A stretch of DNA of 59,564 nucleotides, from contig CAZFGR010000012.1 of the NCBI GenBank assembly GCA_964518475.1, forward strand, positions 1-59,564. Direction: 5' to 3'. Shown here one piece after another: positions 5,954 through 8,614 of the stretch. The number at the start of each line of letters is the position of its first letter. Within the stretch, counting starts at the first letter, position 1. A program made the position numbers and the translations under genes. The notes under the pieces were generated by a model that did not search any database, was not told the origin of the DNA, and saw nothing but the letters and a program-made list of their open reading frames with translations. Source of the DNA: an uncultured Nitrososphaerota archaeon. GTDB taxonomy: Archaea > Asgardarchaeota > Njordarchaeia > Njordarchaeales > Njordarchaeaceae.

Positions 5954-6787
5954 CTACTTAGTCATCGCAATAAGTACTTCCCTAATTATTGTAGCTGCTA
6001 ATATAGCTGTTATCGATGTATGATCTTTTGGAACAACTTCCACTACATCAACTATTTTAGGTCTTACATTAATTAAAGCCTTAATCAATTGAAGAGGTTC
6101 TAGCCCCAGAGGTTCTGGATTTGCTACCTCGGGTGCGTATGGGGGATCTATAACGTCTATATCCAGAGAAATATAATCAGCACTCTGGAGTTTTTGTTCT
6201 AGGATTCTTGGGTCTTCACGGATTTCCAGGCTAGTGTAGTATTCTACTCCGTATTCCTCTAACTCTCTCATAGCATTTTTTGATACTGATCTCAGTCCTA
6301 CTAGAACAATTTTTTCCCAGCCAATAATCTCCCCAACCCTCCTCAGAACACTCCCATGCGTATATTTTGATCCTAAATAACTGTCCTCGAAATCTGCATG
6401 AGCGTCGAGATGCACATATTTCCTAATTTTTTCAGAGAAAAAAGAAATAATGGGTATTGTGATTGTATGGTCTCCACCAATGAATAAGTATCTCTCAGCG
6501 AATGCTACTTCTTTGAGTGCTCTTTTTATTCTCTGTGTAGTCTCTTCAAAGTTTCCATGCGATGTCTCGATATCTCCCCAATCTGATATCGGTAGTTCTC
6601 TAATGTCTATCCTCTGCATAATGCTATACTCTTCCAGGCTATCCGCCACTATTCTTATGTAGGTAGGAGCGAAGCGACTACCAGTGATATATGTCTGGTT
6701 ACTATCATAAGGAATCCCCAGAACCACCGCCCGGGAGCGTTGGAAGAGGGGAAGGCCGAATAATGGTTTGATGGGATTCAGAAGCAT
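5954..6787 (-). CDS. speB: Agmatinase / agmatine ureohydrolase
   Basis: GGDHT, DAHAD and SLDIDVIDP ureohydrolase motifs; SD AGGAGG upstream; start at 6787 or 6796. Confidence 0.9.
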   Translation of the reverse strand: MLLNPIKPLFGLPLFQRSRAVVLGIPYDSNQTYITGSRFAPTYIRIVADSLEEYSIMQRIDIRELPISDWGDIETSHGNFEETTQRIKRALKEVAFAERYLFIGGDHTITIPIISFFSEKIRKYVHLDAHADFEDSYLGSKYTHGSVLRRVGEIIGWEKIVLVGLRSVSKNAMRELEEYGVEYYTSLEIREDPRILEQKLQSADYISLDIDVIDPPYAPEVANPEPLGLEPLQLIKALINVRPKIVDVVEVVPKDHTSITAILAATIIREVLIAMTK

Positions 6788-7142
6788 CAGAGACATCCTC
6801 CTTATAAGGTTCTCCCCTAACAACTGTCATAGCCACATAATATCTCGGTTTTAGATATTCCAGAATTATATCAAGAGCTTTCTGAGGATCAATACCCCTG
6901 CACGTAAATATATCCAATGCAGCATAACCGAACTCTGGCCATGTATGTATGCTAATATGGGACTCCTTAACAGCTATAACTCCCGTAACTCCATGTGGGG
7001 AAAACTTATGAAATACCTCCCCTATGATTGTTGCTCCAGCTTTTATAGCTGCTTCCATCAAAATTTCTCTCAACCTGTCCAAATCATCCAATAACTTAGG
7101 ATCAACCCCATGAAGTTCAACAATTATGTGTCTTCCTAGCAT
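6705..7142 (-). CDS. speD: Pyruvoyl-dependent S-adenosylmethionine decarboxylase proenzyme (SpeH-type); an arginine decarboxylase paralogue is not excluded
   Basis: GRH, HKFSPHGVT, E|SHISIHTWPE autocleavage motif and DIFTC; ~35-aa low-complexity tail overlapping speB. Confidence 0.9.
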   Translation of the reverse strand: MLGRHIIVELHGVDPKLLDDLDRLREILMEAAIKAGATIIGEVFHKFSPHGVTGVIAVKESHISIHTWPEFGYAALDIFTCRGIDPQKALDIILEYLKPRYYVAMTVVRGEPYKEDVSDASESHQTIIRPSPLPTLPGGGSGDSL

Positions 7143-7457
7143 ATTTACTCACCCCAGGAGGAAATATTTCTAGAGAGGAAAGATGAGGTAAAAGCCGGGG
7201 CGGGTGCTCTAAAGAGTTTGGCTCAGATAAAAAAAGGTCCGTATCCCGGGAGTACGCGGAAAGATCATTACATATACACTGCGAGAAAAAGAAACTCAAC
7301 GGACGCTGAATAGGCCCCCTCCGAACACGCCCCAAGTACTCCAGTAGTGTCCTATCGCGAGATTTCAGAAAGGTCACCAGGAGCCGGGCCCTGCACAATT
7401 TCTCCCCCTCCCCTAAGGAAACGTGCCAGGGAGGGTCGGGCCCGCCCCGGCACGCAT
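7143..7457 (-). promoter_or_regulatory. Structured, uORF-containing 5' leader of the polyamine operon
   Basis: GC-rich island; perfect 11-bp inverted repeat 7441-7451/7194-7204; uORFs at 7457-7413, 7396-7352, 7335-7117 and 7268-7209; anti-SD element at 7182-7192. Confidence 0.6.
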
Positions 7458-7481
7458 AACTTTTATGATACTTACGTTACA

Positions 7482-7498
7482 TATTTAAAGTTATCTTC
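7482..7498 (-). promoter_or_regulatory. BRE/TATA promoter of the speD leader
   Basis: Minus strand GAAGATAAC-TTTAAATA, ending about 25 nt before ATG 7457. Confidence 0.65.
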
Positions 7499-7604
7499 TA
7501 TGACTTCTATCCTACTCGGAAAAGGTCCCTTAGAAACAATTACTTGCGTCCATTAGTCGCAGACAAAACATATTATAATAGTATATACTTCCAAATTAGC
7601 CATG

Positions 7605-7670
7605 AGTCCTATGATGAGCACGCCCTTCACTGATTTAGATAAATGATGAGCTCTACCACTGCTGAGGATT
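7605..7670 (+). ncRNA. Box C/D guide sRNA (predicted targets: tRNA D-loop and 5' domain of 23S rRNA)
   Basis: C ATGATGA 7611, D' CTGA 7630, C' ATGATGA 7643, D CTGA 7662; two 12-nt guides; short terminal stem. Confidence 0.9.
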
Positions 7671-7684
7671 GATAATATCAAACA

Positions 7685-8614
7685 ATGGTGCTTTTCGTGA
7701 ATAAATCAAAAGTTTCTGAATTCGGCAAATTCGTCTATAGAGTAACAGAAAAAATCATTTCTAGAGAAAAGAGCCGTAACAATATTCTCTCAGTAATAAT
7801 TTATGGATCACTCGTTGATGAAGGCTACGTAGAAGGACTTAGCGATATTAATGTATGCATAGTGACAGAGAATCTTGTGAGGGATCTCTACAGCTTAAAG
7901 AGCATCTTAGTATATCGCTTTTGGAACCAATATAAAAGAAAACTTTCCCCAGAAGTCTTTCCATACATTGTTTTTCGAGAATTCTACATCAGAGGAATTC
8001 CTCTTCCAGTAATCGTTGTTAAAAGCGGTTTTCCTATAAAAACAGATTCTGCAATAATCGATCTAAAAAGGAGAGAGTATAGGTGTGGAGACCTTAGCTT
8101 GTATTACTCGTTATGCAGAGCTGTTAGGGAGCTGTCTTTCAGCATATCTTTTTTTCTAAAAAGAGATATAGCGGGGGGCATCCGATTCCTTCAACATTCC
8201 TTGGTACATGCTCTTAGATCAATAATAATAGCTCAAGAAAAAAGAGTACCCTGCACTATCAACGATATTCTTAATCAACTTAAGAAAATGAATAAAGATG
8301 AACTATCTAACCTCCTATCTCTCGTAACAACCATGAAGAAAAATGCCTTCAGACTAGAGAAATCACTTAAAAGAAAACATTTATCGCTGAGAGCTAATAA
8401 TTCAATAATAGTGGCTCTCAAGAAAACGTATAATGTTATTTCATTAGCTTGGAGACTTGTCGGAATAAATCTCGTAAGTTACGAGGAATTAACAAATATT
8501 TTAGACAAAATACAAGCCACAGAAATCGTTATGCGTTGTCATAATAATAACCCAATTCTAGAAGCTTATGATAAAAATTGGCAATATCATCGGATACCTC
8601 TTTTCACCCATTAG
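7685..8614 (+). CDS. Nucleotidyltransferase (MNT-like) domain fused to a helical HEPN-like domain
   Basis: SVIIYGSLVDEGYVEGLSDIN resembles GS..DxD with the second Asp replaced by Asn; helical C-terminal half. Confidence 0.6.
   Translation: MVLFVNKSKVSEFGKFVYRVTEKIISREKSRNNILSVIIYGSLVDEGYVEGLSDINVCIVTENLVRDLYSLKSILVYRFWNQYKRKLSPEVFPYIVFREFYIRGIPLPVIVVKSGFPIKTDSAIIDLKRREYRCGDLSLYYSLCRAVRELSFSISFFLKRDIAGGIRFLQHSLVHALRSIIIAQEKRVPCTINDILNQLKKMNKDELSNLLSLVTTMKKNAFRLEKSLKRKHLSLRANNSIIVALKKTYNVISLAWRLVGINLVSYEELTNILDKIQATEIVMRCHNNNPILEAYDKNWQYHRIPLFTH

Follow-up and report, generated by a model that had tools for sequence, protein, structure and literature searches.

Cis-acting leader open reading frames (ORFs) and RNA switches are textbook matter in bacteria, as is control of S-adenosylmethionine decarboxylase (AdoMetDC) by upstream ORFs (uORFs) in eukaryotes. 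In plants, the AdoMetDC leader carries an overlapping 'tiny' uORF together with a 'small' uORF of 48-55 codons that acts in a sequence-dependent manner. Eukaryotes acquired AdoMetDC uORFs on at least three occasions, the plant tiny/small pair and mammalian MAGDIS being examples (PMC2811004). Here we describe a leader located directly upstream of the AdoMetDC gene speD in an uncultured Nitrososphaerota archaeon (GenBank assembly GCA_964518475.1, placed by GTDB in the Njordarchaeaceae of the Asgardarchaeota). The window, i.e. the whole stretch of DNA analysed, covers 59,564 nucleotides (nt) of contig CAZFGR010000012.1. An initial annotation of this DNA, made from the letters alone, read the leader as four short uORFs sensing polyamines and knew of no described archaeal equivalent. 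None turned up in the literature searched, which for archaea yielded only ribosome-profiling hints of small ORFs in 5' untranslated regions of Haloferax (PMC10117724).

A genuine and conserved element, novel in detail, precedes speD. To judge from sequence comparison, this leader is long, very likely translated and physically tied to the speD start. It resembles the plant AdoMetDC leader in the enzyme concerned, in the presence of a long uORF with a conserved peptide, in its translational logic and possibly in a second short overlapping ORF. However, initiation is based here on a Shine-Dalgarno (SD) sequence and not on cap scanning, and the two are unrelated in sequence (no direct comparison with the plant peptide was made). 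The archaeal uORF runs to the main start, a coupling that probably activates, in contrast to repression by the plant small uORF, and the structured RNA switch has no plant counterpart. Restriction of the element to one archaeal genus points to an origin independent from the plant system. The leader ORF, a block of about exit-tunnel length and alternative leader RNA structures are shared with SpeFL-speF (ornithine; bioRxiv 10.1101/604074), TnaC and SecM. The likeness to SpeFL-speF extends to a leader ORF in a polyamine-pathway operon where ribosome position would decide downstream expression. Unlike these systems, the speD leader has no conserved terminator or element masking a ribosome-binding site (RBS), its ORF is much longer and extends to the downstream start, and homology is absent; arrest is proposed here. 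Archaeal termination-reinitiation pairs (PMC6728339, PMC10666635) likewise have a stop within the range of -26 to +16 nt from the downstream ATG, a single strand and an SD before the downstream start. Those are pairs of real protein genes, whereas the upstream partner is here mostly unconstrained past codon 35 and merely open. Finally, as in the antizyme +1 frameshift (PMC2811004), a short first ORF stops where conservation switches to the +1 frame in an mRNA of the polyamine pathway, but the second frame is open from its own conserved start and the shift-site codon is not conserved. None of these systems is homologous to the speD leader, and none combines a bistable leader gating an SD with a long uORF that ends at the main start.

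Conservation of the speD leader and its reading frame

The speD gene (6705..7142, minus strand; Pfam AdoMet_dc, E = 4e-39) is the first enzyme gene of the operon speD-speB-bpsA-speE, which runs in one direction on the minus strand. All features given below lie on this strand unless stated otherwise. The 350 nt located 5' of speD contain a GC spike (up to 64% against about 35-40% in the surroundings) in an AT-rich genome. The sole recognisable promoter element 5' of speD is a TATA box, TTTAAATA (7482..7489), and the placement of the leader ORF within the speD mRNA derives from this single box. Archaeal TATA-to-start spacing alone places the predicted transcription start region at 7455..7460, and a start near 7457 fits this spacing. 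It is followed by a hairpin, P1 (7423..7453), by a second hairpin, P2 (7409..7421), and by a G-rich SD tract, GGGGAGGGGGAG (7402..7413). Both the TATA box (7489-7482) and this purine-rich SD (7413-7402) had been recognised in the initial annotation, and both are real and conserved in relatives. The leader ORF (7117..7398) starts at a TTG, has 93 codons plus TGA and overlaps the beginning of speD by 26 nt. It includes a conserved peptide block, DRTLLEYLGRVRRGPIQRP (codons 15-33, 7300..7356), and a variable tail (7120..7299) of free sequence whose frame is open up to the speD ribosome-binding site. The SD of speD itself, GGGGTGAG, lies at 7148..7155.

The comparison includes 13 homologous leaders, that of the window and 12 relatives, representing at least seven SpeD lineages. 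The relatives were gathered via SpeD in genomes of the same GTDB genus, from one metagenome contig and from contigs recovered by protein searches; the SpeD protein of one of them is named Candidatus Njordarchaeum guaymaensis at NCBI. All 13 share a common plan composed of the TTTAAATA box, P1, a variable P2, the G-rich SD tract, a start codon and an ORF of 54-93 codons. The TATA box is found about 36-40 nt 5' of P1 in every leader that reaches that far. The SD of the leader ORF is conserved as GGGGAGGGGGAG or GGGGGGGGAG, 2-4 nt 5' of the start codon. The latter is ATG in 11 of the 13 leaders and TTG in the window and its closest relative (L005), with TG next. In all leaders an SD of the GGTGA- or GGAGGTG-type precedes the speD ATG by 5-9 nt. 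The long ORF, its conserved block and the two-state fold of its 5' part described below are conserved features absent from the initial annotation.

The leader always lies directly 5' of the AdoMet_dc gene, even where the order of the operon is different. Operon order does vary: in L272 and L275 speE precedes speD, in L273 bpsA has the opposite orientation, and the leader stays with speD. Searches with the P1 motif and a covariance model identify one copy per genome, at speD only. It is present in six of the seven genomes of the genus and absent from all 144 other genomes of the phylum that were searched, and the conserved leader peptide is confined to the genus within its 14-genome class. No leader is found at a closely related SpeD gene (P0038/L289), in the GC-rich 'MLGIHII' SpeD clade (L278) or in the order-level relatives L010-L016. 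The SpeD tree is too short to resolve whether the leader-bearing lineages are monophyletic. Two scans of wider collections with the P1 motif are too permissive, with GC-rich bacteria and one true homologue (L156) among the matches listed.

Three zones of constraint can be distinguished along the leader. Third-codon positions of speD are only 43-50% identical even in the closest pairs, i.e. neutral sites are saturated. In close pairs, the leader is 93-100% identical through codon 7 of its ORF and 74-87% identical in codons 8-35. The tail reaches 32-39%, which is the random level, and cannot be aligned. In codons 17-36 the ratio of non-synonymous to synonymous differences (pN/pS) of the long frame is 0.40 in a seven-species group and 0.19 between the window and L005. 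Over the same region it is 1.9 and 1.6, respectively, for the +2 frame, and 0.8-1.9 for the frames other than the long one. The closest pair exhibits 8 synonymous versus 3 non-synonymous codon differences in the leader ORF. These ratios show purifying selection at the peptide level on codons 17-36, where the block follows the pattern [DN]RTLLEY-x6-GPxQR[PL]. As for AdoMetDC leader uORFs, an ORF of the 5' leader is thus conserved across species with its peptide sequence under selection. No Pfam family matches the peptide, a search of 5.8 billion proteins gives no relatives outside the genus, and an ESM Atlas feature search yields no usable match. The MAGDIS motif occurs in none of the 13 leader peptides. 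AlphaFold predicts no fold (pLDDT 56.6, pTM 0.15, from an alignment of 10 rows), and a complex prediction of SpeD residues 1-120 with leader peptide residues 1-40 gave a score of 0.00, which counts neither way.

The third zone is constrained in its frame only. In all 13 leaders the stop codon of the ORF lies at -19 to +23 nt of the speD ATG, and the spacing between the two reading frames is -26 to +16 nt on the same strand. The two other frames contain 4-9 stops each. Shuffled versions of each tail place their first stop within the observed range around the speD ATG with a probability of 0.09-0.24 per sequence; multiplied over the 13 tails, which are largely independent, this gives a combined log10 P of -11.2 (about 1e-11). 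Although it cannot be aligned, the tail is never closed and ends at the speD start. Selection thus keeps the frame open up to the speD RBS and does not act on the encoded sequence.

Two alternative folds of the leader RNA

The first zone is composed of five segments that can pair in two ways: a (GGGGCGGGGCC), b (CCCUCCCC), e (UUUCCCC), c (the SD tract, GGGGAGGGGG) and d (GGUCCCGCUCC, codons 3-6). In the window, segment a is GGGGCGGGCC (7448-7439) and segment b is CCCUCCCU (7435-7428), separated by a loop, while segment c corresponds to the SD tract given above. Segment d, which is complementary to a in the nested fold, is GGCCCGGCUCC (codons 3-7, 7380..7390).

The local fold consists of P1 (a:b) and P2 (e:c). 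P1 has a predicted stability of -23 to -27 kcal/mol at 37 °C and -9 to -13 kcal/mol at 75 °C in all species, and contains a conserved 1x1 C.U mismatch. Its cells in the alignment are paired in 98.9% of cases, against at most 67% in slid controls. Every species forms P2, with stem extensions that differ (CAC/GUG, AGAA/UUCU or AA/UU). It ranges from -6 to -16 kcal/mol at 37 °C and from 0 to -6 kcal/mol at 75 °C. It is longer and of different sequence in the relatives; in the window it is short (UUUCC/GGGGA, its 3' arm being the beginning of the SD tract) and weak (-5.9 kcal/mol). A third hairpin, P3, in which the SD tract would pair locally with codons 4-6, was also considered and is not robust.

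The consensus returned by RNAalifold is a different, nested fold in which a pairs with d and b with c, so that the SD and the first codons are buried. This fold is possible in every species, with 8-12 base pairs (bp) in a:d and 8-13 bp in b:c. It comes within 2-8 kcal/mol of the P1 state at 37 °C, and at 80 °C the gap shrinks to within 1-4 kcal/mol. In an alignment built on the model, 93.8% of its cells are paired against at most 73% in slid controls. Four of its pairs are altered on both sides, three of them in the a:d helix, and its covariation score exceeds those of 500 out of 500 shuffles. The leader thus resembles a bistable RNA, with two mutually exclusive conserved folds of similar energy. 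Three further observations fit a switch, as far as predicted pairings allow. In the nested fold, the two bases of the C.U mismatch of P1 find partners as C-G and U-A pairs. The two variable positions of segment a (columns 9 and 18 of the alignment) differ in L006 and L275, and both alternative partners have changed with them. Finally, the window has lost one G in segment a and its U partner in segment d, with a frame-restoring insertion nearby.

Additional pairings occur in the tails. An 11-mer of the window, CCCGCCCCGGC (7194..7204), is a perfect complement of the 5' arm of P1 (7451-7441), a score reached in 1 of 300 shuffles. It is present in the window genome only, and the resulting 11-bp long-range helix was rejected as a conserved feature. 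The tail of L005 holds instead a 13-nt complement of the SD tract (5 of 300 shuffles). Both are lineage-specific extra pairings.

A translational control model and its rivals

The leader is probably a speD-specific translational control element of two coupled parts, a two-state RNA and a leader ORF that delivers ribosomes to speD. It would be transcribed from the TATA box, and the two-state RNA would set how often the leader ORF initiates. In state I, P1 would lock away the C-rich segment b, leaving the SD tract held by the weak P2 alone, and the leader ORF would initiate. In state II, pairing of a with d and of b with c would give a nested fold of about 19-21 bp burying the SD and the start region, presumably the OFF state. 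Initiating ribosomes would translate the ORF of 54-93 codons, of which codons 16-35 specify a conserved peptide of about exit-tunnel length; this 20-residue block, ending at GPxQR[P], is a candidate nascent-peptide element. Ribosomes terminating at the speD RBS could then reinitiate on speD, and their presence would shield the long leader from premature termination or decay.

An unconstrained yet open tail that ends at the speD start implies that ribosomes must arrive there, which is the sole property explaining it. In Haloferax, termination-reinitiation loses 40-60% at spacings of 13-14 nt and fails at 22-23 nt (PMC10666635). All 13 spacings observed here fall within the range in which that system operates (PMC10666635). 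No TATA-like box is found in the variable tail of any of the 13 leaders, nor do the tails contain a conserved oligo-T tract or intrinsic terminator. Folding predictions show no masking of the speD RBS by the tail (mean z about 0). Taken together, these results suggest that coupling would act by ribosome delivery and/or leader protection and not by unmasking. Individual T tracts do occur: the window tail has a T5 (7286-7290) and a T7 (7229-7235), which could act as partial archaeal terminators, and tracts of this type are present in 4 of the 13 leaders.

The input may be a signal from the pathway itself. The specificity of the element for speD makes feedback by polyamines or a metabolite of S-adenosylmethionine (SAM) the natural guess, and we favour polyamines, decarboxylated SAM (dcSAM) or SAM acting on the RNA equilibrium and/or the nascent peptide. 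In its fullest form, which we put forward only tentatively, the leader would be an independent Asgard invention of AdoMetDC feedback: polyamines or dcSAM/SAM would shift the leader RNA and/or arrest the ribosome on RTLLEY..GPxQR and so set reinitiation on speD, to which an overlapping 14-codon ORF in the +2 frame might add decoy initiation or an antizyme-like +1 frameshift.

Several points weigh against translational control of this kind. The speD gene has a good SD of its own which, being unmasked, might allow independent initiation; masking by the tail is not supported. The start codon of the leader ORF in the window is a weak TTG, and both the transcription start and the translation of the ORF are predictions from the DNA. 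P1 does not covary significantly (its score is reached in 66 of 500 shuffles) because it is nearly invariant, and the nested fold was scored on an alignment fitted to it, a bias in its favour, and on sequences that are related to each other. The RTLLEY..GPxQR block is missing in two lineages, L006 and L275, which replace it entirely yet retain the RNA leader and the ORF end-point. The core design thus does not depend on the peptide, which is an additional layer.

Temperature could also be the input, and the presence of bpsA in the operon and the vent habitat make it a serious rival. In an RNA thermometer, the weak helices sequestering the SD (P2 or c:d) would melt with heat, raising expression of the leader ORF and of the coupled speD, with more synthesis of long and branched polyamines in the hotter cell. 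Branched polyamines rise with growth temperature in Thermococcus. The DNA was found in hydrothermal-vent and sediment metagenomes, and P2 weakens between 37 and 75 °C while P1 stays stable. However, neither a conserved peptide block nor a long ORF up to speD is needed by a thermometer, both predicted states are still present at 80 °C and P2 of the window is already very weak; we regard this explanation as unlikely. Alternatively, the ORF could be an ordinary small-protein gene, coupled to speD in translation as is common for subunit pairs, with a trans-acting product such as a SpeD-binding regulator or subunit. The purifying selection seen in codons 17-36 agrees with this, gene callers predict the ORF on four contigs, and short overlaps and spacings are enriched among genes for complex subunits (PMC10666635). 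A protein of which half or more is unalignable between close relatives, with no predicted fold, no Pfam match and no relative outside the genus, is nevertheless distinctly unlikely, the more so as L006 and L275 replace the block but keep the RNA leader and the ORF end-point.

The remaining alternatives concern the short ORFs and the RNA as such. The ORFs listed in the initial annotation are all found on the minus strand of the window at the positions given there, but comparison with the 12 related leaders leaves three of the four either non-conserved or mis-delimited. The first, uORF1 (ATG 7457-7413, MRAGAGPTLPGTFP*), is confined to the window and L005, where it results from reading the P1 hairpin in a frame not kept by other species, some of which lack an ATG there. 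The ORF from TTG 7335 to 7117, which does cross the speD ATG at 7142, is merely the C-terminal part of the 93-codon ORF starting at TTG 7398. The ATGTAA start-stop and uORF4 (7268-7209) lie within the unalignable tail and are species-specific. Conservation in relatives, on which the proposal could be judged, therefore fails for uORF1 and uORF4 and holds for the long ORF and the frame of uORF2. The P-x(0-2)-P-G motif is indeed present in all four ORFs of the window but is not conserved in any frame; in uORF2 it reads GPAPG only in the window and L281, and GPAPV, GPAPI or GPAPE elsewhere. The model of four Pro-x-Pro-Gly uORFs reporting the polyamine level via aIF5A-dependent stalling has real eukaryotic precedents in AdoMetDC and AZIN1 (PMC2811004). 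It is largely refuted by these alignments and scarcely tenable as a whole, and sensing by aIF5A or of polyamines remains pure inference. More can be said for uORF2 (7352..7396, GTG start, 14 codons, TAG), which lies in the +2 frame and could take part in dual decoding at overlapping AUG/UUG and GUG starts, either as a decoy or through an antizyme-like +1 shift at its stop. This frame has 13-15 codons in all 13 leaders, usually with a second in-frame stop right behind, and its stop coincides exactly with the onset of peptide-level conservation in the long frame. For codons 2-15, the +2 frame has pN/pS values of 0.58 and 0.32, versus 0.94 and 1.42 for the long frame. The junction of L281 reads UCC UGA U, which we take to be the antizyme shift site. 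However, in all 13 leaders the long frame has its own ATG/TTG and no stop in codons 1-16, and the codon 5' of the stop varies (UCN, UUU, CUU, CGA, GGA). Much of the uORF2 frame may be a by-product, its GTG following from the conserved Met-Cys and its TAG from the Asn/Asp-Arg codons of the long frame, and the three apparently synonymous changes of the window are more plausibly the indel pair by which helix a:d is preserved. Selection on the uORF2 frame is thus unproven, and dual decoding seems still more doubtful than a small protein. Least credible is an independent structured RNA gene (the RNA of the signal recognition particle (SRP), RNase P RNA or a guide RNA) that merely happens to lie upstream of speD. 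The GC spike in an AT-rich genome and the 11-bp terminal complementarity of the window would suit such a gene, but the terminal helix is window-specific, no conserved terminator precedes speD and the conserved part runs into a coding signal. Rfam 15, with its riboswitch and cis-regulatory families, matches nothing on the minus strand of the leader even at E <= 10, and only sub-threshold C/D-box matches are found on the plus strand (7606-7650). The archaeal SRP RNA model (RF01857) has no match in 7050-7650 even at E <= 10, and the genuine SRP RNA of the genome lies on another contig (G000:C1:134980-135329, minus strand, locus L001, 137 bits). SRP RNA, RNase P RNA and other known RNAs are thus ruled out.

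Neighbouring genes and biological significance

The genes 3' of speD match the Pfam families Arginase, BpsA_C and Spermine_synth, in line with an agmatinase-type speB followed by bpsA and speE. SpeD of the leader-bearing lineages has a C-terminal extension and is 139-152 amino acids (aa) long, whereas relatives lacking the leader have a SpeD of 119-135 aa. In the window this extension (6705-6823, minus strand) overlaps the longest possible speB frame, which begins at TTG 6823. The speB start is called much later on another contig, a choice that would truncate the Arginase domain of SpeB.

On the other side of the leader, a divergent ORF of 309 aa (7685-8614, plus strand) has no Pfam match and is kept beside the leader in the congener G002. 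By eye, its GS..D.N motif resembles that of nucleotidyltransferases. A probable C/D-box guide sRNA (7605-7670, plus strand) lies between the speD promoter and this gene. Its Rfam matches are below threshold (snoR9, 25.6 bits, E = 7e-4; sR4, E = 0.03), and the box sequences and the guide GCACGCCCTTCA are conserved in G002 (L003, about 1822-1885).

Restriction of the speD leader to one uncultured genus limits its generality. Translational control of the type proposed here is rarely documented in archaea, and the comparative case for an archaeal leader element includes three layers of constraint (nucleotide, peptide and frame-only), a two-state fold and a fixed end-point. If the proposed control is true, the element, at about 330 nt, would be compact enough to be testable in vitro or in Thermococcus or Sulfolobus reporters, and uORF control of AdoMetDC would have arisen independently once more, in the archaeal lineage closest to eukaryotes.

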